From a phage, in the NCBI GenBank assembly GCA_018296565.1, contig GCA_018296565.1_3935.1: DNA of 64,000 nt, one strand, 5' to 3'. Numbering within the stretch: the stretch's first letter is position 1; each line of letters begins with the position of its first letter. The translations under genes were made by a program, and so were the position numbers. Below the pieces are notes generated by a model that was given only the letters and a program-made list of their open reading frames with translations, ran no database searches and was not told the DNA's origin. Shown here one piece after another: positions 41,490-63,334 of the stretch.

Positions 41490-43467
41490 AGGTCGTAAAT
41501 TGAAAGAGGCTGGTCAGTTTGTTGGTCATTGCGCATGTCCACGTTGTGGTTCATCAGATGCTGGTTCAATCTATCATCATGACGATGGTTCTTATTCAAT
41601 GACTTGCTTTAGTTGTAACAAAGGTTTCCCAGAGTGGGATTTTGATAAAGGACAAATCGTGAGCACTTATTCTACTGGTTCAGACAATAAAAACCGTACT
41701 TTCCGTGGAATGGATTTAGACGATGTGAAAGAAAACCTTGAAGCAATGGACTTGAAAGACAGGAAGATTCCTGCAAAAGTTCTTGAGCGTTTGGGTATCA
41801 AGGTTGACATTGACAGTGATGGTGAAATTGACGCGCATTTCTACCCAACTTACAAACGCAATGAAGATGGCAAGCTAGAGCATGTTGGATACCGTGTTCG
41901 TCACCGTTACCCAGAAGACCATCCAAAAGAGCACCTACGAGGTAAGTTAAAAGACTTTTCTGGTGGTGTTGGAGACATTAAAGGTGAACTGGCAATGTTT
42001 GGTTCATGGATTGCTCCAGAAGGTGGGAATCGTCTGTTCATCTGGGAAGGTGAGATGGAATGTGCCACAGCAATCTATATGACTTCTTTGGCGATTAAAG
42101 ATAAGTCTCGTCGTAAGAATTACTGTCACGTATCTGTCCCATCAGGTGCAAACATTAAGTCTATCAAAGACAACTATCAGTACATCACATCATTTGATGA
42201 GATTTACTTGTGCTTTGATAACGATGAAGCAGGTGCTAAAGCTACCAAAGAGGCTGCTGGTATCTTACCTATTGAGAAGGTTCGCTTATTCCAGTATCCA
42301 GAAGGTGTAAAAGACCTTAACGAATGGTGGACAAAGTTTTATAAAGAGAAAGATACAGTTCTGGAAGGATTTAAACAGCGTATCTATAACGCACCTCGTT
42401 ACTGCCCTGCTGGTATCAAGAACTTTGCAGATGGTTTTGAGGCAATGAAGAATCGTGGTCAGATTCCATTGATACCTTTCCCAGAATCTTTCGGGGACTT
42501 GAACAGGCTAACTTACGGTGGTTACGGTTTAGGTGAGATTACAACTATTGCAGCACCATCTTCAGTAGGTAAGTCAGCTTACACTCGTGAGATGATTTAT
42601 TCAGCTTGGAAAGAAACTGATTATAATATCGGTGTAATTCCTGTAGAAGATACCTATGAAGAGTTGATGGAGATGCTCTGTGCAATCCACCTAAGCAAAC
42701 AGATTTCTGAGATTCCTTATGATGAACGAGATTGGGATGAACTAAAAGGGGCGCACGCCGAGCTTTCAAAAGGTCGCCGCATTCATATCGTTGACCATCA
42801 AGGGGCAATTGACCAAGATAACCTGCTGGAGTTTGTTGACTATCTTGTTAATAGTTTAGACTGTAAGATTATTATTCTTGACCCTATTACGTTGGCTCTG
42901 TCACGTTCTGATACGGATGAAGAGGAAGTGTTATCTGAACTACTGCGTCGTTGCAAACGCTACCAGTATGCACAGGTGAACGTCTGTCACGTTCGTAAGA
43001 GTGCAGGCGGTCAGAAAGCTAACTCTGAAGGCGGAGACATCTCTGAAGAGGATATTAAGGGTTCTGGTGCGTATTTCCAGATTTCCATGAACAACATTCT
43101 ACTAATGCGTAACAAGGTTGACCCAGACCCTGTTAAGAAAAACTTGACAAAAATCAAGTTAACTAAGTGTCGTCGTCATGGTAAGTCAACAGGTATTGCT
43201 GGCCATACTTGGTACAATCCAGACACAGGACGTCTTATCAAAGCTTCTGGATGTGGTGTTGACATTGATGGTGCAGCAGAAAATATTCGTCAACAGTTTG
43301 GTATTGGTGAAGCTGAAGACCATTATGACGACTCTTTACCTCATTATGAAGATGAAGTGTTTGACCGTGAGACTGGTGAAGTCTATACTGAAGAACAGCG
43401 TCAAAGCTCAACGATTCCACCTGTATTAAGTGAGGATGCAGATGACTGCCCGTTTGAAACTGAGTGA
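41482..43467 (+). CDS. DNA primase-helicase (T7 gp4-like)
   Basis: Track ORF starts at a GTG at 41476; ATG at 41482 follows an aagaggtg RBS. N-terminal zinc ribbon CACPRCGSSD...CFSCNKGF, C-terminal helicase Walker A AAPSSVGKSAYT. Confidence 0.85.
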   Translation: MSKGRKLKEAGQFVGHCACPRCGSSDAGSIYHHDDGSYSMTCFSCNKGFPEWDFDKGQIVSTYSTGSDNKNRTFRGMDLDDVKENLEAMDLKDRKIPAKVLERLGIKVDIDSDGEIDAHFYPTYKRNEDGKLEHVGYRVRHRYPEDHPKEHLRGKLKDFSGGVGDIKGELAMFGSWIAPEGGNRLFIWEGEMECATAIYMTSLAIKDKSRRKNYCHVSVPSGANIKSIKDNYQYITSFDEIYLCFDNDEAGAKATKEAAGILPIEKVRLFQYPEGVKDLNEWWTKFYKEKDTVLEGFKQRIYNAPRYCPAGIKNFADGFEAMKNRGQIPLIPFPESFGDLNRLTYGGYGLGEITTIAAPSSVGKSAYTREMIYSAWKETDYNIGVIPVEDTYEELMEMLCAIHLSKQISEIPYDERDWDELKGAHAELSKGRRIHIVDHQGAIDQDNLLEFVDYLVNSLDCKIIILDPITLALSRSDTDEEEVLSELLRRCKRYQYAQVNVCHVRKSAGGQKANSEGGDISEEDIKGSGAYFQISMNNILLMRNKVDPDPVKKNLTKIKLTKCRRHGKSTGIAGHTWYNPDTGRLIKASGCGVDIDGAAENIRQQFGIGEAEDHYDDSLPHYEDEVFDRETGEVYTEEQRQSSTIPPVLSEDADDCPFETE

Positions 43468-43537
43468 TAGTTATAAAAGAGAGGGGTTCATACCATTCTT
43501 TGAAGAAAAAAGTTTAAATGAATTTCAGGAAGAGTGT

Positions 43538-43566
43538 TTGACAAAGGTTGATAGGTTCTATAGAAT
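43538..43566 (+). promoter_or_regulatory. sigma70-like promoter TTGACA-N17-TAGAAT
   Basis: gtgTTTGACAaaggttgataggttctaTAGAATgc, just downstream of the primase-helicase stop. Confidence 0.45.
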
Positions 43567-43718
43567 GCTCTACATGAAATGTGATGGAGGCGTTGAGGTA
43601 GAAGAAAAGTTCCATCACAGCATAATCACAGTCACCATTACTATACCTAAACATAATATTGGTTGGCTCTTTATAATTAAAGAAAATGTGTTTGAATATC
43701 AAGTATATCGGAGAATAT

Positions 43719-43869
43719 CATGAAACACTCTAAAGCATTTGAACAAGTTTTTGGGGATTCCTTAAAAGCCACTGCTGGTAAACCAGCAAAATACTATGAA
43801 GAGAAGCGTGTAAGAACTGGAAAAACTGCACGTAAAGCAGCTTCTAAAGATAAGCACAACTTCCAGTAA
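43719..43869 (+). CDS. Small basic protein (unannotated ORF, 49 aa)
   Basis: ATG preceded by ggag RBS; lysine-rich; below the 60 aa track cutoff; flanked by two promoters. Confidence 0.35.
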
Positions 43870-43876
43870 TTAATGT

Positions 43877-43905
43877 TTGACAATAGAGTATCAACAAATT
43901 AGAAT
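43877..43905 (+). promoter_or_regulatory. sigma70-like promoter TTGACA-N17-TAGAAT upstream of SSB gene
   Basis: aatgTTTGACAatagagtatcaacaaatTAGAATtgg, about 35 bp upstream of the 43942 ATG. Confidence 0.5.
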
Positions 43906-51685: not shown

Positions 51686-51927
51686 TGACTTATGTGATTT
51701 ACTCCAAAACTGGATGCCCTCAGTGTGAGACTGCAAAGAATTTTGCAAAAGCTCGTGGTATTGACCATGTTGTGAGAATGTTAGGGCAGGATTATGAACT
51801 GTCAGACCTGATGGATATTGCACAGATGCCAGTTCGTCAGATGCCATTCATCATGAAAACTGATGGACAAAACCTAAAACCTGTTGGAACGCTACAGAAT
51901 TTTATGGCAGAGGTGAATAATGCTTAA
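51685..51927 (+). CDS. Glutaredoxin-like protein (NrdH/Grx family)
   Basis: 80 aa with CPQC redox motif near N-terminus (YSKTGCPQCETAK), immediately after nrdB. Confidence 0.6.
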   Translation: MTYVIYSKTGCPQCETAKNFAKARGIDHVVRMLGQDYELSDLMDIAQMPVRQMPFIMKTDGQNLKPVGTLQNFMAEVNNA

Positions 51928-52126
51928 ACGCCTTTGGGAAGGTCTGGTTGTTGATGCACCAGCCATTGTGATTGGTATGCTGATTGTTAACCTATTTACT
52001 GATTTTGAACAAGGTTCATTGTTTGGGGCCATGTTACTATGGGTTATCTTTGAAATATTAGAGATACAGTTAGGCATCACTGAAAAACTAAGAAAACTCG
52101 TTTCGAAGTTTTCTAAAAAGATTTAA
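51920..52126 (+). CDS. Small hydrophobic protein
   Basis: 68 aa, two hydrophobic segments, gaggtga RBS. Confidence 0.4.
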   Translation: MLKRLWEGLVVDAPAIVIGMLIVNLFTDFEQGSLFGAMLLWVIFEILEIQLGITEKLRKLVSKFSKKI

Positions 52127-52132
52127 AATGAA

Positions 52133-52155
52133 AGGGTCTCTTCGGAGACCTTTTT
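52133..52155 (+). terminator. Rho-independent terminator
   Basis: Hairpin gggtctc-ttcg-gagacc followed by TTTTT. Confidence 0.6.
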
Positions 52156-52174
52156 AGCATGTAAAGGGGCAATA

Positions 52175-54319
52175 ATGAACAAAGTACAGATTATTAAAAA
52201 GAATGGCTCACTCGAAGAACCTGATATCAAAAAAGTTTTAGCAGCAGTCACAAAGTCAGCTAATAGGGTTGGGTATAAAGAACTCCCACCAGATGTTACT
52301 CAAGCTCTTGAGTCAGCATTTATGAGGATTCTGGTAAAATCTACTAAACAGAATAATTTACTAATTTCGGTAAACGATATTCACAGTATTGTTGAAGGTG
52401 CTTTGGCAGAGGTCAATCACGAGATTTATGAGTCTTACTCAACATACAGAAATTACCGTAAAGAGGTTGCTCAAAATTGGGATGAACTTTACCAAAAGAC
52501 TAGAGACACACTCTTCTTAGGTGACCGTGAAAATGCTAACTTTGACAGCAGTTTAATTTCTACGAAAGGTTCAATTATCCGTGGTTACCTGACTAAAGAA
52601 ATCTTTAAACAGTATCATCTAACACCAGAGGAACTTGAAGCCATTGAGAAAGGCTTTATCTATATCCACGATTTGAGAGACCTGATTTTTGGTGGTATTA
52701 ACTGTTGCCTGTTTGACATTGGTAAAGTACTAAAAGGCGGCTTTGAAATGTCCGGCATTGAGTACTGTGAACCTAAATCTGTACTGTCAGCGTTGCAGGT
52801 TATTGGTGACGTAGTACTTTCAGCAACTGCACAGCAATTTGGTGGTTTTACTTTAGCAGAGATTGATAAGGTACTTGTACCGTATGCTAAGAAGTCTCTA
52901 CGCTATCATGCTGAGAAAGCATCATCTTATGGTATTCCTAAAGAGCATTACCACAATTATGTAATGGAGCAGTTACAAATTGAACTGACTCAAGGTTTTC
53001 AGTCACTTGAGATGAAACTAAATACCGTACCTTGTAGCCGTGGTGATTTTGCATTCACAACTTTAACATTTGGTTTACTTGACTCAGATATGTCTAATGA
53101 GGATAATCGACTACAATACATGATTGCAAGTACTCTCCTAGATGTTCGTATGAATGGACAAGGCAAGAGCAAAAAACCTGTTGTATTCCCTAAACTGGTT
53201 TATATTTATGACCAGAAGAGACATGATGAAAATATCTGTCAAGGTCACCTGTACAGTAAAGCTATTGAGTGTTGCTCTAAAGCAATGTACCCAGATTTCT
53301 TAAGTGTGTCTGGTCATGGTGCTGTAGCAGAGGCTTTTGAGCGTTCTGGTAAGGTAATTTCACCGATGGGTTGCAGAGCCTTTTTATCTCCATATCTTAA
53401 TGAGGGTGGAGAAGAGTTCTACGTTGGTCGTGCTAACATTGGTGCTGTATCTTTGAACTTACCAATGATTTACCAGTATTCTAAAGAGAATGGCTTAGAT
53501 TTCTGGAAAGAGCTTGATAAGTACCTAGAGATGATTCGTAGTTTCCATAAGAAACGCTACGAAATGATTGCTAATATGCCAGCAAGCTCTAACCCTCTTG
53601 CATTCACACAAGGTGGTCTGTACAAAGGAACTAAGAAACCTACTGACAAGGTTGGTTGGGATATTGTGAAGTCCTTCACAGCTTCTTTTGGTGTTACTGC
53701 GCTTGATGAGTTGTCTGTTCTTGCTGAAGGTAAACGACTGCATGAAGTTGGAAGCTATAGTTTTGCATATGATGTTCTGGCATACATTAACATGAAAACC
53801 GAAGAGTTTAAAAATGAAGATGGCTTCTTATATGCCGTCTATGGTACTCCAGCAGAATCACTTTGCGGAACTCAACTAAAACAGTTCAGAGATATGTTTG
53901 GCGTTATCAAAGGCGTTTCTGACAAGGAATACTTTACAAACAGTTTCCATATGAATGTTGCAGCAGACATCTCACCATTTGAGAAGCAGGACTTAGAAGA
54001 ACCATTCTTCCATATCTGTGGAGGCGGTAGAATCCAGTATGTAAGAGTAGCTAACCCAGAAAACTTATCAGCACTTAAGAGCTGTATTACAAGAGGGATG
54101 TTGAAAGGTTTCTATCAGGGACTTAACTTTGACTTAGCAATCTGTGAGCATTGTGGTAACAGACCAAAATCAGATGTTGAAGAGTGTGAAGTTTGTCACT
54201 CACATGATATCTCTGTGATTAACAGGGTGTGTGGGTATCTTGGATGGACTAAGATTAAAGGTGAATCCCGAATGAACGATGCAAAAATCGCTGAGATTCG
54301 TGACAGAGTTTCTATGTAA
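52175..54319 (+). CDS. nrdD: Anaerobic ribonucleoside-triphosphate reductase (class III)
   Basis: 714 aa; C-terminal zinc ribbon CEHCGN...CEVCHSHD and glycyl-radical motif RVCGYLG. Confidence 0.85.
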   Translation: MNKVQIIKKNGSLEEPDIKKVLAAVTKSANRVGYKELPPDVTQALESAFMRILVKSTKQNNLLISVNDIHSIVEGALAEVNHEIYESYSTYRNYRKEVAQNWDELYQKTRDTLFLGDRENANFDSSLISTKGSIIRGYLTKEIFKQYHLTPEELEAIEKGFIYIHDLRDLIFGGINCCLFDIGKVLKGGFEMSGIEYCEPKSVLSALQVIGDVVLSATAQQFGGFTLAEIDKVLVPYAKKSLRYHAEKASSYGIPKEHYHNYVMEQLQIELTQGFQSLEMKLNTVPCSRGDFAFTTLTFGLLDSDMSNEDNRLQYMIASTLLDVRMNGQGKSKKPVVFPKLVYIYDQKRHDENICQGHLYSKAIECCSKAMYPDFLSVSGHGAVAEAFERSGKVISPMGCRAFLSPYLNEGGEEFYVGRANIGAVSLNLPMIYQYSKENGLDFWKELDKYLEMIRSFHKKRYEMIANMPASSNPLAFTQGGLYKGTKKPTDKVGWDIVKSFTASFGVTALDELSVLAEGKRLHEVGSYSFAYDVLAYINMKTEEFKNEDGFLYAVYGTPAESLCGTQLKQFRDMFGVIKGVSDKEYFTNSFHMNVAADISPFEKQDLEEPFFHICGGGRIQYVRVANPENLSALKSCITRGMLKGFYQGLNFDLAICEHCGNRPKSDVEECEVCHSHDISVINRVCGYLGWTKIKGESRMNDAKIAEIRDRVSM

Positions 54320-54329
54320 AACTTGACAT

Positions 54330-54370
54330 GGTGGTGTGAGTCTTGATAGGCTTACATCACCTTTTTTATT
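54330..54370 (+). terminator. Strong rho-independent terminator after nrdD
   Basis: 11-bp stem ggtggtgtgag/cttacatcacc (with G-U pairs) followed by TTTTTT. Confidence 0.6.
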
Positions 54371-54381
54371 GGAGTTGTATC

Positions 54382-54726
54382 ATGGACTTGTGGCTTTATG
54401 TAGCAGTTTGTGGCCTTGCATGTCTCATCATATTAATCATTATCGGTGTCATGCGTTTTAAAGACATTATTTGCTCAGATTTTTGGCCTGAGTTTATCTT
54501 TAAAGCTATGGTAGTGGTATTCCTTATATTTTGTGCTTTTGTTGTATATGATTCGTATAAGGTAATGGCATGGATGGATGCAAACAATTGTGTAAAAACC
54601 TCTCAAAACCGTGAGGTCACTTATTTTGTGAGCGTGCTTAGTGGGAGTACCACTATACTTGTTCCACAAACTTCTGTAGAATATCTTTACACATGTGATA
54701 ATGGGAAAACTATATGGTGGAATTAA
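54382..54726 (+). CDS. Membrane protein (hypothetical)
   Basis: Track start at 54343 lies in the terminator hairpin; ATG at 54382 with ggag RBS used. Two hydrophobic segments. Confidence 0.4.
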   Translation: MDLWLYVAVCGLACLIILIIIGVMRFKDIICSDFWPEFIFKAMVVVFLIFCAFVVYDSYKVMAWMDANNCVKTSQNREVTYFVSVLSGSTTILVPQTSVEYLYTCDNGKTIWWN

Positions 54727-54728
54727 TT

Positions 54729-54929
54729 ATGTCTAAGCTTTTAAAGGTGTCGATACCCATACTGCATATAGCGGTATTCTTCATTGGGGTTAGTGTCACA
54801 GTATGGGGTTTCTCAGACCCACAATGGGAGTTTTCATATCAGGGTCAGATGGATTTGTGGTCATGCTTCAAACCATTTTTAGGGTTAACTATTGCATTTT
54901 CTGCAATACCAACTAAGGTCAAATTATGA
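54729..54929 (+). CDS. Small membrane protein (hypothetical)
   Basis: Internal ATG of track ORF 54714-54929; hydrophobic; start choice uncertain. Confidence 0.35.
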   Translation: MSKLLKVSIPILHIAVFFIGVSVTVWGFSDPQWEFSYQGQMDLWSCFKPFLGLTIAFSAIPTKVKL

Positions 54930-55321
54930 TTAAGTTAAGCCAAAAACAATTAGAGTGGATTAAAGATTACGCCTCAGAGTGTGGCTCTTGCGAAAAGAAT
55001 CACGTAAAATACTCAACATTTCATACGACCTTCACATTGTATGTTGGTGACAACGTTCTAAGTGATTCCGTAGAAGATGGTGTAGCTTTGCCTAATGAAT
55101 TACTTGACAAATTAGCTGTAGTCACTGGAACTTGGTCTGAAGAAGATGGTCACGAGCTATCTGACGATGTTGTCTTCTACAGTCTTGAAAATATTATGAA
55201 TCCAGAGTACATTATGCTAATGACTTGTGCACAAGACTGTGTGCCATTACAAAACTTCATTAAAGAGCACTGCGAAGAGTTTATTACTAAACAGGTTCCT
55301 TGTCAGGTGGTGTTTGAATGA
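54926..55321 (+). CDS. Hypothetical Cys-containing protein
   Basis: 131 aa ORF with overlapping start/stop. Confidence 0.45.
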   Translation: MIKLSQKQLEWIKDYASECGSCEKNHVKYSTFHTTFTLYVGDNVLSDSVEDGVALPNELLDKLAVVTGTWSEEDGHELSDDVVFYSLENIMNPEYIMLMTCAQDCVPLQNFIKEHCEEFITKQVPCQVVFE

Positions 55322-55617
55322 GTAAAACAATTCGAAGAAAAGGTTTGAAGAACGTTCATGGACTCTATGAGTGGAGAAATGAGGTACGTAACAGAGAAAA
55401 TGCTTCAGATGTCTACTTCCATTCTGATATGATGTCCAGAAAAGGTGGCTCTTATGACTTCACAAGCCAGCCTTGTAGAGAGATTAAGGAGGCTACTAAA
55501 CGTCTTACAAGAACACAAATCAGGCAGCTTTCTAAGACATCCTTCTTAGATGAAGACTTTGACATTGATAGTAAGTCTCCAAAGAAAGCCGCTAAGAACA
55601 CTTATATGTATTGGTGA
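55318..55617 (+). CDS. Hypothetical protein
   Basis: 99 aa basic ORF, translationally coupled. Confidence 0.45.
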   Translation: MSKTIRRKGLKNVHGLYEWRNEVRNRENASDVYFHSDMMSRKGGSYDFTSQPCREIKEATKRLTRTQIRQLSKTSFLDEDFDIDSKSPKKAAKNTYMYW

Positions 55618-55626
55618 GGTAACTAG

Positions 55627-56112
55627 ATGAATTACATGGAGATTCGACCATTTGACACAGCTAATGGTGAAGGGGTTCGTGTAAGCCTCTTCGTAGCTGG
55701 TTGTAAGCATCACTGTGAAGGCTGCTTTAACAGGGAGTCTTGGAAGTTTAATGCCGGTAAAGTGTTTACTTATGCAAACCTCTACGGCATCATTAAGTTA
55801 ATGGATGATAATGCCATCAGTGGGCTGTCAATACTTGGTGGAGAACCTCTGGATGATAGAAACATTCAAGAGGTTACCAACATATGCAAACGTATTAAAA
55901 CCGTTTACCCAGAAAAATCTATCTGGCTCTGGACAGGTTTTCAGTTACATGAAAAAATTCACCTTGATGTGATGAAATATGTTGACGTGGTGATTGATGG
56001 TAAGTATGATTCATCTAAACCAACAGTTAAACCATATCGTGGTTCTGATAACCAAAACCTCTGGAGAAAAGAGTATGGGTGGCAAGGTGATTGCCAATGG
56101 CGAGCAGAATGA
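55627..56112 (+). CDS. nrdG: Anaerobic RNR activating enzyme (radical SAM)
   Basis: 161 aa; radical-SAM cysteine motif CKHHCEGC near N-terminus; downstream of nrdD. Confidence 0.8.
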   Translation: MNYMEIRPFDTANGEGVRVSLFVAGCKHHCEGCFNRESWKFNAGKVFTYANLYGIIKLMDDNAISGLSILGGEPLDDRNIQEVTNICKRIKTVYPEKSIWLWTGFQLHEKIHLDVMKYVDVVIDGKYDSSKPTVKPYRGSDNQNLWRKEYGWQGDCQWRAE

Positions 56113-56208
56113 TTATTCTGGCAAATGGATTAAGGTATAACTCCAATTGGTATCACTGAAGAAGAACTTCATAAGTTCTGCATTAAACTTTAATGAGAGA
56201 GACTAAAA

Positions 56209-56475
56209 ATGGGAATTTTAGGTAATATGAAAGCCGGATTCTTGAAGGCACTGGCAAAAGCAGCAGCAATTGTTTCTATGACTGGAAAGCAGGTCGGTGT
56301 AGATGCTTCAGCGGTTGCACAGGTTCTTACAAGCCAAATTGAACAGCAGCCTTACATCTATGTAGGCCGTGGCAAAGGTGGTAAGAAACAAGCCCACCGT
56401 CCGTCTGGTGCAGCAGCTATTAAACGAGCAGCTAAGAAAGCTCGTAACCGTAAACGTAATAAGAAGGCTAAATAA
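56209..56475 (+). CDS. Small basic protein with Lys/Arg-rich tail
   Basis: 88 aa; amphipathic N-terminus, C-terminus AAIKRAAKKARNRKRNKKAK. Confidence 0.45.
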   Translation: MGILGNMKAGFLKALAKAAAIVSMTGKQVGVDASAVAQVLTSQIEQQPYIYVGRGKGGKKQAHRPSGAAAIKRAAKKARNRKRNKKAK

Positions 56476-56477
56476 TC

Positions 56478-56798
56478 ATGAGCAAAGTTTATAACACTCG
56501 TAAATTACAGATTTTCTTACTGTGCCAGTTTATGGCTAGAGAGCATAACTCCTACTATTGTGGTACAGGATTCATTAGTGATAATGATGGCTCATATCTC
56601 CCATTCAAAGAGGCTGTAAAACTCTTCAATGAAGAGAAAAGCTCTGAGAAAGATATTGAAAAGGTTAAATTAACCTATAGCAAGAAAGATAAGAAGATTA
56701 TCTGCCTAGATAACTTTGTGAAAGTTACCAAAGAAACTAAAGAGTCAATGGAAGAAAGTGAAATTCCATTCACAAGAATCTTGAAAGTAACTCAGTAA
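56478..56798 (+). CDS. Hypothetical protein
   Basis: 106 aa ORF, ATG start. Confidence 0.45.
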   Translation: MSKVYNTRKLQIFLLCQFMAREHNSYYCGTGFISDNDGSYLPFKEAVKLFNEEKSSEKDIEKVKLTYSKKDKKIICLDNFVKVTKETKESMEESEIPFTRILKVTQ

Positions 56799-56810
56799 GC
56801 AGATACTATA

Positions 56811-56840
56811 AGGGAACTGTAAAGGTTCCCTTTTTATTTT
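56811..56840 (+). terminator. Rho-independent terminator
   Basis: Hairpin agggaac-tgtaaa-ggttccc followed by TTTTT. Confidence 0.6.
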
Positions 56841-56849
56841 GGAGATAAT

Positions 56850-57365
56850 ATGTATCTGTCAAATCTGAAACGTTCTGCTGCAATGTCAGTGTTAAGACTC
56901 AGTTTTGAGGAACGTCAAGAGTTCATTGACTCCCACCAATACGACCCTTCCAACTCCAATCACATGATTCTCTGGAATCGTGAGAGTACTCGTGAAAGAG
57001 CATTATTTCGATATTACCCACACTACACCATAGACAACCTGTATGAATGCTTTGTTGTGAAGAACACCATTACAGTACTCAATAAACTTTGCAGATACAC
57101 AGGCAGTCAATCCTTCACATTAGGCCACCACAAACCTGTTACAAAAGGTGGTGAACATCACTGTACAAACTGGTTTATTCAGACTAAAGCTGATAACCAG
57201 AAGCAAGGAGATAGTCTTTTAAGTACCCCTAAGATGACCTATGAAGAGCAAGAGAGATATATCAAAAATAATATGCCAGATGTGCTTGACAACAACTATA
57301 CAGATTTGGCAATATCTCTCCTGTTGAAGTTCGAGATAGTTTATAGGGCAACTTACAATGGCTAA
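56850..57365 (+). CDS. HNH endonuclease
   Basis: 171 aa; HNH core LGHHKPVTKGGEHHCTNWFIQTKADNQKQGD. Confidence 0.6.
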   Translation: MYLSNLKRSAAMSVLRLSFEERQEFIDSHQYDPSNSNHMILWNRESTRERALFRYYPHYTIDNLYECFVVKNTITVLNKLCRYTGSQSFTLGHHKPVTKGGEHHCTNWFIQTKADNQKQGDSLLSTPKMTYEEQERYIKNNMPDVLDNNYTDLAISLLLKFEIVYRATYNG

Positions 57366-58574: not shown

Positions 58575-60356
58575 ATGACTAAATCACTTTATGCAGTACC
58601 AGCAGGTTTAAATGCAGATGCTTACAAATCTGGTCATGTTTACCAGTATCCTAGCGCAACAGAGTACTTGATGTTCAACCTGACACCACGTAGTGATAAA
58701 TGGTTTAACAGCCCTTTAGCAATTGACGGTGTAGTGGCTTTTGGTATTCAACGTTTTGTTAAAGATTACTTGATAGACCACTGGAATGCCACTTTCTTTG
58801 AACGTGATAAAAAAGAAGCAATTGACGAAATCTTAGAAGTCATGCATGGTGTTCTTGGTAAAGATGCTATCGGTCGAGAGCATTGGGAAGCACTTCACGA
58901 CTTAGGTTATCTACCAGTTGAAGTCTACGCTGTAGAAGAAGGCACAGTTGTCCCTATGCGTGTCCCAATGATTGTTTTCCAGAACACTGTTTCAGGTTTC
59001 CATTGGGTAGCAGGTTATCTGGAAGATGCTTTCTCTGCTGAGATTTGGAAGGCTTGTACCATTGCAACTATTGCATTGCACTACAAACGTATCTGTAAGA
59101 GGTGGGCTGACCTTACTTGTGATAACGACTTGCATTTGCCTTATCAGTGCCATGACTTTGCTATGCGTGGTATGTCCGGCTTTACTGATGACGCATTTAA
59201 TGCTGTAGGCCACTTGACCAGCTTTAAAGGAACTGATAGCTTCCCTGCCGTATATACAGCTAAACGCATCTACGGACAGTCTTACCCAGTCTCTGATATT
59301 GGTAGCTCTGTACCAGCCACTGAGCACTCTGTAATGTGTGCAAACATTGCTTGGGAAGGTGGTAACGAATTGATTGAAGAAGAAAGACGCTTTAAAGGTG
59401 AATTACAAACCTTCCGTCGTTTCTTAACAGAAACTTACCCAACGGGTATTGCAAGTATTGTTTCAGATACTTATAACTTCTGGAGAACTGTATCAGTGAT
59501 ACTGCCAGAACTCCGTAAAGAGATTATGGAACGTGACGGCAAGCTGGTAATTCGTCCTGACTCTGGAGACCCTGTGCATATTGTCACAGGTTATAAAGCA
59601 ATCCACTTAGAATGTGCTAAGAAGGCTTATTATGAACATCTTAGCAAGCTGGAAGCTAGTGATACAATGCTGAAATCTGTTCTGAACATGAAGCTTGAAA
59701 ACATCAACTATGGTATTGCTGGATGGCTACTGTCAGAAGGCTACGAAATGGTTGTTGACCGAGAAGACTTTGAAGTTGCTGATACAGTACTGCTGAAGAA
59801 TGCTTATATGGTTGGTTCTGCAAACGTTGTAACACGTCCTGTAGCAGAGATTGATGGAGCTATTAAGACCCTGTATAACATCTTCGGAGGGACTATCAAC
59901 TCCAAAGGTTTTAAAGTACTGGATGAGCACATCGGACTTATTTATGGTGACTCTATCACGTTGGAACGTGCAAACGAAATATTGAAGCGTTTGTATGAAA
60001 TGGGTTTTGCAAGCTCTAACGTAGTGTTTGGTGTAGGCTCTTACACTTACCAGTACATGACTCGTGACACCTTTGCATTTGCTGTCAAAGCAACTCTTGC
60101 AAGCATTGGTGGTAAGGAGATTATGCTTGCAAAAGACCCTAAAACAGATAGTGGTGTGAAGAAGTCTGCCTTTGGTGGTGTAGCGCCTATGTGGGATGGT
60201 GATAAATTGAAAGCTGTAGATGGCTATGGATTCCAGAGCTTTGCAGATGCACTTGAACATCCAGCTTGTGCTTTACGTTTAGTCTTTAGCGACTCTGAGC
60301 AGTTTGGCTACACAACTCTTGGCGATATTCGAAATAATATTGACAAGCAGCTTTAA
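58575..60356 (+). CDS. nadV: Nicotinamide phosphoribosyltransferase (Nampt/NadV)
   Basis: 593 aa; matches remembered Nampt blocks: DAYKSGH, HDFAMRGMS...KGTDS, SIVSDTYNFW, IRPDSGDP. Confidence 0.8.
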   Translation: MTKSLYAVPAGLNADAYKSGHVYQYPSATEYLMFNLTPRSDKWFNSPLAIDGVVAFGIQRFVKDYLIDHWNATFFERDKKEAIDEILEVMHGVLGKDAIGREHWEALHDLGYLPVEVYAVEEGTVVPMRVPMIVFQNTVSGFHWVAGYLEDAFSAEIWKACTIATIALHYKRICKRWADLTCDNDLHLPYQCHDFAMRGMSGFTDDAFNAVGHLTSFKGTDSFPAVYTAKRIYGQSYPVSDIGSSVPATEHSVMCANIAWEGGNELIEEERRFKGELQTFRRFLTETYPTGIASIVSDTYNFWRTVSVILPELRKEIMERDGKLVIRPDSGDPVHIVTGYKAIHLECAKKAYYEHLSKLEASDTMLKSVLNMKLENINYGIAGWLLSEGYEMVVDREDFEVADTVLLKNAYMVGSANVVTRPVAEIDGAIKTLYNIFGGTINSKGFKVLDEHIGLIYGDSITLERANEILKRLYEMGFASSNVVFGVGSYTYQYMTRDTFAFAVKATLASIGGKEIMLAKDPKTDSGVKKSAFGGVAPMWDGDKLKAVDGYGFQSFADALEHPACALRLVFSDSEQFGYTTLGDIRNNIDKQL

Positions 60357-60370
60357 AAGTATATGATAAG

Positions 60371-60392
60371 AGGCTCCTACGGGAGCCTTTTT
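60371..60392 (+). terminator. Rho-independent terminator after nampt
   Basis: Hairpin aggctcc-tacg-ggagcct followed by TTTT. Confidence 0.6.
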
Positions 60393-60409
60393 AATTTCTG
60401 GAGAAGACT

Positions 60410-63298: not shown

Positions 63299-63304
63299 AG
63301 TGTT

Positions 63305-63334
63305 TGACAAGGGGCTTTTAAGCCCCTTAGAATA
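63305..63334 (+). promoter_or_regulatory. sigma70-like promoter TTGACA-N18-TAGAAT with palindromic spacer, between rIIA and rIIB
   Basis: gtgtTTGACAaggggcttttaagcccctTAGAATagcc; the spacer is an inverted repeat aggggc/gcccct. Confidence 0.45.

Follow-up and report, generated by a model that had tools for sequence, protein, structure and literature searches.

A conserved terminator hairpin with promoter-like boxes precedes a variable set of small genes between nrdD and nrdG of a Felix O1-type phage

In Escherichia coli the genes of the anaerobic ribonucleotide reductase, nrdD, and of its activase, nrdG, are adjacent and co-transcribed. The phage DNA analysed here (contig GCA_018296565.1_3935.1 of GenBank assembly GCA_018296565.1; the stretch of 64,000 nucleotides is called the window below) encodes the same pair of glycyl-radical reductase and radical-SAM activase as E. 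coli nrdDG, but its two genes lie 1.3 kb apart with a terminator in between. This raises the question of how nrdG is transcribed, and whether the genes in the gap have any part in the reductase. The window belongs to a Felixounavirus, i.e., a Felix O1-type phage, and on its plus strand nrdD is followed by a 14-bp hairpin with a U-run (54330-54367), four small ORFs (54382-55617; ORF-A to ORF-D) and nrdG:

52135-52155, plus strand: short intrinsic terminator 5' of nrdD, GGTCTC-TTCG-GAGACC and TTTTT; Felix O1 t116 (Table 2, PMC3185647)
52175-54319, plus strand: nrdD, 714 aa, class III (anaerobic) ribonucleotide reductase catalytic subunit, uninterrupted in the window
54382-54726, plus strand: ORF-A, 114 aa, hydrophobic N-terminal (membrane) region and a tail of ~55 aa; phrog_8826
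54729-54929, plus strand: ORF-B, small membrane protein of 66 aa; phrog_11929; Felix O1 p221
54926-55321, plus strand: ORF-C, 131 aa, acidic (pI 4.4), soluble; phrog_4382; Felix O1 ORF120
55318-55617, plus strand: ORF-D, 99 aa, basic (pI 9.8), soluble; phrog_1774
55627-56112, plus strand: nrdG, radical-SAM activase of NrdD
56209-56798, plus strand: two small ORFs past nrdG, 88 aa and 106 aa (DUF7390), proposed to share the transcription unit of nrdG

Both proteins display the characters of a class III reductase. NrdD matches the Pfam domains NRDD (E=5.7e-114), ATP-cone (7.5e-12) and Gly_radical (1.5e-4), while NrdG matches Fer4_12 (E=4.2e-43) and Radical_SAM (8.4e-7) and carries the cluster motif CKHHCEGC, which is of the radical-SAM type CxxxCxxC. 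Neighbouring genes among ORFs A-D are spaced by 2 nt or overlap at ATGA, and 9 nt separate ORF-D from nrdG. The terminator and the four ORFs are all located where the original prediction, made from the letters of the window, had placed them, and its division into two membrane and two soluble proteins agrees with hydropathy, as ORF-A and ORF-B possess strongly hydrophobic segments and ORF-C and ORF-D are soluble. Repeats within 54300-55650 are short, chance-level matches only, and Rfam returned no match at E <= 1 for positions 51800-57000.

The premise that nrdD and nrdG are usually adjacent does not describe the rule in phages, because in T4 (nrdD - mobC - nrdG - 55.8 - nrdH) the two genes are likewise separated, by mobC. 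This HNH homing endonuclease gene resembles the HNH gene of the Si3-type Felixounaviruses discussed below, and the T4 region also has, close by, a glutaredoxin and a small protein predicted to lie in the membrane. The T4 gap differs from that of the window in consisting of one mobile endonuclease gene, with neither a terminator/promoter cassette nor four ORFans, and in T4 a group I intron is present in nrdD. For the Felix O1-type group the split arrangement is ordinary: more than 250 phage records already show the layout of nrdD, small ORFs and nrdG in their annotation. The original prediction was to be given up if related phages showed these genes in an ordinary arrangement with known functions. 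The layout in related phages is indeed the same and long annotated, whereas family searches assigned no function to any of the four small genes. In Felix O1 itself the locus corresponds to ORF117-ORF121, with the same element after nrdD and homologues of ORF-B and ORF-C, but a membrane ORF118 of 41-54 aa takes the place of ORF-A, and ORF-D is reduced to a remnant of 17 codons.

The 45-nt element after nrdD and the sequence from there to the first small gene contain the following signals:

54323-54328, plus strand: proposed -35 box TTGACA, beginning 3 nt beyond the TAA stop of nrdD and 1 nt upstream of the stem
54330-54367, plus strand: intrinsic terminator, hairpin 54330-54361 followed by TTTTTT at 54362-54367
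54344-54352, plus strand: proposed extended -10 box TGaTAGGCT, spanning the hairpin loop and the upper end of the descending arm
54371-54374, plus strand: Shine-Dalgarno sequence GGAG, 7 nt before the ATG of ORF-A at 54382

The hairpin consists of 14 pairs (6 G-C, 3 G.U) with a loop of 4 nt. It contains G+C and is directly followed by the U-run, as is characteristic of intrinsic terminators, and a terminator is annotated at the same place in the phages Meda and Michonne. The structure is more than chance: the hairpin in its 71-nt context folds with -22.9 kcal/mol against -13.2 +/- 3.1 for shuffled sequences (z = -3.15), and among 14 distinct relatives 99% of the pair cells are standard, compared with 33-54% when the partner is slid. 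Two pairs are altered on both sides, both in one lineage, and the covariation score, behind which stand few independent events, was reached by 20 of 500 shuffles. Substitutions turn G.U into A-U or G-C, plus one double change from G-C to A-U, and they keep the RNA pairing. Since the substituted G.U states pair in plus-strand RNA only, we interpret this pattern as an indication of selection at the RNA level.

The boxes that frame the hairpin are likewise conserved. TTGACA is an exact -35 consensus and is separated by a spacer of 18 nt from TAGGCT, which agrees with the -10 consensus at 3 of 6 positions and is preceded by a TG extension. All but one of 26 distinct variants contain TTGACA (TTGACG in L009), and TCTTGATAGGCTT is invariant in 26/26 variants from three genera. 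These patterns suggest a promoter, although TAGGCT may owe part of its invariance to its place in the hairpin. In the window as a whole, TTGACA-N16-18-TAnnnT occurs 15 times against an expectation of 4.4 +/- 2.3. A literature search for Felixounavirus transcript-end data found none. Seven 20-mer matches from a viral sequence collection (L043, L044, L048, L054, L069, L071 and similar) are without the context of TTGACA and U-run and were discarded.

The synteny comparison that the original prediction had called for was run on 38 related nrdD-nrdG loci, and it found the element constant and the genes downstream of it variable. In cross-genus pairs the 45-nt element is 91-93% identical, while the same pairs reach 71-79% over the final 300 nt of nrdD and 81-85% at the start of nrdG; where the element is 89-98% identical, its flanks can be as low as ~50%. 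Just past the U-run the sequences of many loci are unrelated (~50% identity), with at least five alternative first genes, and at least nine gene-content variants behind the element were counted in 37 loci. The upstream side changes as well. In four loci (L010, L011, L023, L031) and in the Si3-type phages the nrdD stop codon is parted from the element by an HNH endonuclease gene, inserted precisely where the two meet, with ATGTAAAAC repeated at the junction; in the four loci it is this gene, and not nrdD, that lies upstream of the element. The Si3-type phages (among them Si3, Mushroom, FG1m and VSe11) have none of ORFs A-D; their element (L036), a variant with GGCGGTG, abuts the ribosome-binding site of nrdG, and both nrdD and nrdG are intact. 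As these alignments show, the element is the constant feature of the locus and the genes behind it are interchangeable cargo.

A comparable combination of signals is known as the PeSL, the promoter-early stem-loop of the T4-type phages RB49, phi1, PST and nt-1 (Arbiol et al. 2010, PMC2839356; Comeau et al. 2014, PMC4122927), and nrdD has been named as a PeSL-associated gene (PMC2839356). Like a PeSL, the Felixounavirus element leads from a stop codon through sigma-70-like boxes and a stem-loop with G-T pairs over the -10 box to a Shine-Dalgarno sequence and a start codon. Small ORFans likewise follow it as a block, and it lies where unrelated sequences join in related phages. Four marks of the PeSL (boxes after the stop codon, stem-loop over the -10, GGAG/ATG at the 3' end and a hyperplastic setting) are found here. 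Differences concern the host phage, which belongs to the Ounavirinae and is not T4-like, the weak -10 box (TAGGCT with TG), and the copy number. In RB49 and phi1 about 50 related PeSL copies are present, but the exact hairpin sequence of the element occurs once in the window when up to 3 mismatches are allowed (~23 kb of the genome lie outside the window). We consider it probable that the nrdD-nrdG interval is a small hyperplastic (gene-swapping) region headed by such a composite terminator/promoter cassette, which suggests that PeSL-style cassettes and the shuffling of ORFans operate also in the unrelated Ounavirinae.

Transcripts that run through nrdD would, under this explanation, fold the hairpin with its U-run and mostly stop there. 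The host sigma-70 RNA polymerase would also initiate within the same 45 nt (TTGACA, 18 nt, TGaTAGGCT), with a start site near 54359. As this position lies inside the descending arm, the new transcripts would miss the 5' arm, the terminator could not form, and elongation would presumably continue. The resulting RNA would have a short leader with GGAG, followed by the translationally coupled ORFs A-B-C-D, nrdG and the two small ORFs, and would extend to 56781-56837. A new start within the terminator would thus uncouple nrdG from the transcription of nrdD. Separate transcription of nrdG, one of the two consequences drawn in the original prediction, thereby gains comparative support from a putative promoter within the terminator that is invariant across three genera, and is plausible. 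The element probably serves nrdG, as it is kept directly before this gene in the Si3-type phages, which lack all four ORFs.

The proposed unit would end at another composite element:

56781-56837, plus strand: second composite element, TTGAAA, 17 nt, TACTAT, then hairpin 56810-56832 and a T-run; Felix O1 t124

In 20 variants of this element TTGAAA is invariant and the spacing is fixed at 17 nt, with TACTAT or TATGAT, in one case TATGCT, as the -10 box. We propose that it terminates the nrdG unit and restarts transcription. Further promoter-on-hairpin sites lie at 60340-60396 and 63304-63333, so that three sites besides the one after nrdD share the layout, with hairpin sequences different from 54330-54361. 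No promoter was seen to overlap the terminator at 52135-52155. Promoters placed on terminators are a candidate answer, here and at one or more other loci, to the question of how transcription in Felix O1 passes its many terminators. The published terminator table of Felix O1 omits the hairpin after nrdD, and the promoter list omits the TTGACA site (PMC3185647). RT-PCR maxima were reported at 25 min for ORF120 and at 60 min for both nrdD and nrdG (Table 3, PMC3185647); this timing does not obviously fit a single transcript from ORF-C to nrdG, the assay being coarse.

Alternatively, the element might be an intrinsic terminator or attenuator and nothing else, with nrdG and the small ORFs expressed from promoters further upstream by partial read-through and TTGACA/TAGGCT incidental. 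Such a reading draws on the unambiguous hairpin and U-run, on the weak -10 match (3/6), on the late RT-PCR maximum that nrdD and nrdG share in Felix O1, and on the fact that the Felix O1 authors left the choice between read-through and secondary promoters undecided (PMC3185647). A terminator, however, has no need of an invariant hexamer 1 nt before its stem or of an invariant loop, and both persist in three genera whose adjacent coding DNA is 20-30% diverged. The -35 consensus is exact and stands at the right distance from TGnTAnnnT, the layout of a promoter on a hairpin is seen again at three other sites, and the element is retained right before nrdG where all else has been deleted. We therefore regard a mere terminator as unlikely, while still giving it some weight.

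Very unlikely, in our opinion, is that the element is kept mainly as a DNA site, i.e., as a target or homology arm of the free-standing HNH homing endonuclease or as a recombination hotspot, rather than as a transcription signal. The insertion of the HNH gene exactly at the boundary of nrdD stop codon and element, with its repeated ATGTAAAAC, and the joining of unrelated sequences to the element on both sides would accord with such a role. Homing sites lie in conserved sequence, but homing is itself no cause of conservation, and the substitution pattern of the hairpin points to selection on RNA. Moreover, such a DNA site is compatible with the PeSL model and not truly an alternative to it, since a PeSL cassette would act as a signal and as the point of crossover alike.

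The other consequence considered in the original prediction was an accessory function for the four small ORFs. This is not borne out by their distribution. ORFs A, B, C and D are present in 82, 188, 232 and 95 of ~256 phage records, respectively, and none of them shows the strict co-occurrence with NrdD and NrdG expected of an obligate accessory. ORF-D has been deleted at least twice, the Si3-type phages retain intact nrdD and nrdG without any of the four genes, and ORF-C has a homologue in a phage that lacks ribonucleotide reductase. The homology search suggested for the four proteins returned relatives and PHROGs, and no function from any: Pfam, PHROGs, NCBIfam and PADLOC yielded PHROGs of unknown function and matches at noise level.

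Among the four, ORF-C has the widest conservation (Felixounavirus, Mooglevirus and Suspvirus) and overlaps the start codon of nrdG in Mooglevirus and Suspvirus. Its AF2 model is confident (pLDDT 91.6), yet Foldseek found no match in the PDB at E <= 1e-3; the structural matches in BFVD are uncharacterised phage proteins throughout, and a word-indexed protein search detected relatives in Ounavirinae only. A homologue is gp27 of the T7-like phage Pipis (hhalign probability 98%, E = 7e-14), located between genes 5.7 and 6. A metal site (CxxC, CxxxC) linked to the activase was considered for ORF-C and ruled out because the cysteines of these motifs are not conserved; C116 is the sole invariant cysteine in an alignment of 21 sequences.

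If one or more of the proteins encoded in the gap, ORF-C being the likeliest, were partners of the anaerobic reductase, acting in cluster assembly or reduction of NrdG or in activation of NrdD, the place of ORF-C just upstream of nrdG would be explained. Its occurrence in three genera, always between nrdD and nrdG, and its confident fold without a solved relative are in line with this. Against it stand the Si3-type phages, Pectobacterium phage Arno18, which has nrdD and nrdG and no detectable ORF-C, the occurrence of the homologue in Pipis, which has no ribonucleotide reductase, the poor conservation of the candidate metal-binding cysteines, and the sporadic presence of ORFs A, B and D. We judge a reductase partner very unlikely. 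It is similarly unlikely that ORF-C is an unrecognised modulator of anaerobic nucleotide supply, coupled to nrdG translation in three genera. Were this true, it might be a partner or regulator of the NrdG activase, or of some host target that phages of the Felix O1 and T7 types share, and the self-insulating promoter-in-terminator would serve to set the doses of ORF-C and NrdG separately from that of NrdD.

As the best overall explanation we favour that ORFs A-D are dispensable passengers and not reductase parts, which recombination behind the cassette adds and removes. They should accordingly not be labelled as reductase components in annotations. Our understanding of anaerobic ribonucleotide reduction is unchanged by these results, and their practical value is modest: the stretch from the cassette to nrdG represents a naturally tolerated site for insertions and deletions in a genus widely used for biocontrol of Salmonella and E. 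coli. ORF-A is sporadic, with at most 79% identity to the allele of the window, and ORF-B is confined to Felixounavirus. No usable structure model was obtained for ORF-D (pLDDT 49.5, shallow alignment), and an assignment to DUF5499 was rejected, as the match of 23.1 bits is below the cut-off of 27. ORF-D likewise occurs sporadically, and remnants left by its deletion are seen in Felix O1 and other phages; its independent deletions differ from each other, and one of them took place between the repeats AAGAACGTTCAT and AAGAACACTTAT. In phage PJNS034 a homologue of ORF-D adjoins a DNA polymerase gene.

The interval between nrdD and nrdG, which encode the anaerobic ribonucleotide reductase subunit and its activase, is organised as listed below.

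Features of the nrdD-nrdG region (all on the plus strand)
upstream of the 52135-52155 terminator, +, nrdB, glutaredoxin and a 68-aa membrane ORF
52135-52155, +, short terminator between the 68-aa membrane ORF and nrdD
52175-54319, +, nrdD
54330-54361, +, hairpin terminator followed by six T, between nrdD and ORF-A
54382-54726, +, ORF-A
54729-54929, +, ORF-B
54926-55321, +, ORF-C
55318-55617, +, ORF-D
55627-56112, +, nrdG, starting 9 nt after ORF-D
between nrdG and the 56810-56832 terminator, +, two more small ORFs
56810-56832, +, another terminator, after these two small ORFs

The terminator and the four small ORFs of the original prediction are all present at these positions, two ORFs being membrane proteins (A and B, strongly hydrophobic) and two soluble (C acidic, D basic), with just 2 nt or an ATGA overlap between neighbours. 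The hairpin has 14 pairs, including three G.U, and a 4-nt loop, and folds far below shuffled controls (z = -3.15). The usual adjacency of nrdD and nrdG, a premise of that prediction, applies to bacteria but does not extend to phages: in T4 too the pair is split, there by mobC, an HNH homing endonuclease gene. Positions 52000-56300 match 256 records of the phage collection, 176 of them over at least 80% of the length; almost all belong to Felixounavirus or to other Ounavirinae. Felix O1 has nrdD (ORF117), small membrane ORFs 118 and 119, an ORF-C homologue (ORF120) and nrdG (ORF121), and in the Meda and Michonne records this hairpin already carries a terminator annotation. As far as the arrangement goes, what had seemed unusual is known at annotation level and is ordinary for Ounavirinae.

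The notable part is, judging from sequence, a conserved terminator with a predicted promoter rather than the four genes. The comparison took in 38 loci: 29 from IMG/VR contigs, the others from annotated GenBank records and the window itself. A 45-nt element following the nrdD stop, TTGACA-N-GGTGGTGTGAGTCTTGATAGGCTTACATCACC-TTTTTT, is shared by all loci from Felixounavirus, Mooglevirus and Suspvirus and is absent only from Pectobacterium phage Arno18. Identity across genera is 91-93% for this element, 71-79% for the last 300 nt of nrdD and 81-85% for the first 150 nt of nrdG. Among 26 distinct variants TTGACA is constant except for one TTGACG, and TCTTGATAGGCTT is unchanged in all 26. Variation is confined to the stem and preserves RNA pairing, mostly as G.U to A-U or G-C changes; in one lineage (loci L025 and L033) both sides of a stem pair changed from G-C to A-U. 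Standard pairs fill 99% of pair cells, versus 33-54% with the 3' partner slid by 1-3 columns. The covariation events are modest in number, but their pattern fits a hairpin in plus-strand RNA.

TTGACA matches the -35 consensus exactly, and TGaTAGGCT, 18 nt downstream, can be read as the extended -10 of a candidate promoter, in which the critical T-A...T positions are present. This -10 is weak, and its invariance could stem partly from its place in the hairpin. A plain terminator requires neither a constant hexamer just 5' of the stem nor a constant loop. We interpret the element as a putative promoter plus terminator because of the -35/-10 match, this invariance beyond the needs of a terminator, the recurrence of the layout and its likeness to the promoter-early stem-loop cassettes (PeSLs) of T4-type phages; both activities are predicted. 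The predicted start site, some 7 nt past the -10, would fall around 54359 within the descending arm of the hairpin, so that RNAs begun there would be unable to form it; their leader, about 24 nt long, would include a GGAG ribosome-binding site.

PeSLs combine strong sigma-70-like promoters with stem-loops, which are mostly placed between the two boxes or over the -10 and contain G-T pairs; they are bounded by an upstream stop codon and a downstream Shine-Dalgarno and start codon, and cluster ahead of ORFans in hyperplastic regions (PMC2839356; PMC4122927). An association with nrdD has been remarked on (PMC2839356). The element shares this anatomy and would belong to this known type of regulatory cassette. 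A similar layout is seen at three further composite sites in the window.

Similar composite sites
56781-56837, TTGAAA, 17 nt, TACTAT abutting the next hairpin
60340-60396, TTGACA, 16 nt, TATGAT, and 4 nt later a GGCTCC/GGAGCC hairpin and T-run
63304-63333, TTGACA and TAGAAT, hairpin AGGGGCTTTTAAGCCCCT occupying the spacer, no T-run

In 20 sequence variants of the 56781-56837 site the -35 and the spacing are fixed and the -10 reads TACTAT or TATGAT, with a single TATGCT, while the surrounding coding sequence falls into two quite different alleles. TTGACA-N16-18-TAnnnT occurs 15 times in the window versus 4.4 +/- 2.3 expected, a count reached by no shuffle. The exact hairpin sequence after nrdD is single-copy in the window, so that PeSL-style recombination between dispersed copies is hypothetical here. 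Five strong sigma-70-like promoter matches cluster around short ORFs at 43259-43905 (TTGACA, 17 nt, TAGAAT at 43538 and again at 43877), a possible further stretch of regulatory or hyperplastic character. A 171-aa ORF after the 56781-56837 site (56850-57365) weakly matches an HNH endonuclease PHROG (phrog_2214, E = 6.9e-5), and the 106-aa ORF (DUF7390) preceding it is named 'endonuclease' in some records.

Gene content downstream of the element is interchangeable. From nrdD to nrdG the distance is 551-1668 bp in Felixounavirus, Mooglevirus and Suspvirus and 4029 bp in Arno18, with at least nine gene-content variants between element and nrdG.

Gene content between the element and nrdG (ORF118-type, Felix O1 41-54-aa membrane ORF in the place of ORF-A)
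ORF118-type, B, C: 10 loci
ORF118-type, B, C, D: 10 loci
A, B, C, D (the window's type): 4 loci
A, B, C: 1 locus
ORF118-type, B, C, D and an extra 36-aa membrane ORF: fjerdesal
Mooglevirus and Suspvirus versions: several loci
nothing: Si3-type

Directly 3' of the U-run identity drops to about 50% from one type to another, and the first gene is of at least five unrelated kinds. ORF-D has been lost on two or more occasions: in Felix O1 and L022 its first 42 nt are fused to its last 15 nt through a deletion bounded by the repeats AAGAACGTTCAT (55348-55359) and AAGAACACTTAT (55594-55605), and four other loci (L009, L010, L011, L018) keep a different, shorter remnant. Record counts in the phage collection point the same way, with 256 for the region against 82 for ORF-A, 188 for ORF-B, 232 for ORF-C and 95 for ORF-D. 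The fjerdesal ORF (L002:4866-4985, MYRVIGAFVIFLMVAFVYTLVASVIGLPNPLIWRLN), hydrophobic and unannotated, lies between ORF-D and nrdG and is a further small membrane-peptide insertion at this locus. ORF-A of the window has at most 79% protein identity to any of 50,697 deposited phage records, the surrounding region being about 92-96% identical to such records; some records (e.g. heid) begin ORF-A at an upstream TTG inside the hairpin, probably wrongly.

In Si3-type phages (Salmonella phage Si3, Mushroom, FG1m, FM4b, VSe11, VSe102 and the GEC phages) nrdD is followed by an HNH homing endonuclease gene and the conserved element fused to the nrdG ribosome-binding site; ORFs A-D are all missing and the junction lies at an ATTGG repeat. 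Retention of the cassette where all four ORFs are lost fits a role in nrdG expression. The endonuclease gene (202 aa) lies exactly at the nrdD stop codon in five loci (L010, L011, L023, L031 and L036; L011:4600-5208, and L036:5318-5926 in Si3), the ATGTAAAAC junction being repeated downstream of it, and in the Si3-type its insertion coincides with the loss of all ORFs between cassette and nrdG. In many relatives an HNH endonuclease gene interrupts nrdD itself, which is then annotated as a joined CDS (Meda, L001:1676-4562; nataliec, pSJ21, UAB_Phi87); that of the window is uninterrupted.

An accessory function of the inserted genes, which the original prediction had offered, is not supported, given the absence of all four from the Si3-type, the repeated loss of ORF-D and an ORF-C homologue in a phage without reductase. 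Protein family searches gave no known function for any of the four. ORF-C, the best conserved, overlaps the nrdG start in Mooglevirus and Suspvirus; its AlphaFold model (21-sequence alignment) is a confident alpha/beta fold (pLDDT 91.6) that matches nothing in the PDB at E <= 1e-3 and, in BFVD, only uncharacterised phage proteins. Profile comparison also finds it a relative in the T7-like phage Pipis, gp27 (probability 98%, E = 7e-14), which is encoded between genes 5.7 and 6 in a genome without ribonucleotide reductase. Its CxxC and CxxxC motifs are not conserved among homologues. Homologues of ORF-D (39-42% identity), whose structure model is too poor for use, lie in the nrdD-nrdG gap of Arno18 and beside a DNA polymerase gene in phage PJNS034. 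The Pipis homologue, the non-conserved cysteines and the ORF-D contexts argue against a dedicated reductase-accessory role, which for ORF-C is left as a residual possibility.

The Felix O1 paper lists neither the hairpin downstream of nrdD nor the TTGACA promoter, and leaves undecided whether terminators are passed via read-through or secondary promoters (PMC3185647). By RT-PCR, ORF120 peaks at 25 min and nrdD and nrdG both at 60 min (PMC3185647); as the assay is coarse, these classes neither fit the promoter/terminator model neatly nor refute it. In the window nrdD has terminators on both sides and the one at 52135-52155 lacks an overlapping consensus promoter, so nrdD expression may depend on read-through past it; the predicted P117 of Felix O1 lies upstream of the matching terminator.

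ORF-C homologues are labelled 'tail tube protein' and an ORF-D neighbour 'baseplate distal hub subunit' in some records (JLBYU28/32, HMD-P8, vB_CbrM_HP1, SP22), which look like annotation errors because the genes lie in a nucleotide-metabolism block and no match supports the names. Near-identical Felixounavirus sequence under unrelated host names (GU169904 'Staphylococcus phage SA1', MG065668 'Campylobacter phage A126' and likewise P0087 'Methanobrevibacter gottschalkii') points to contamination or mislabelling of these entries.
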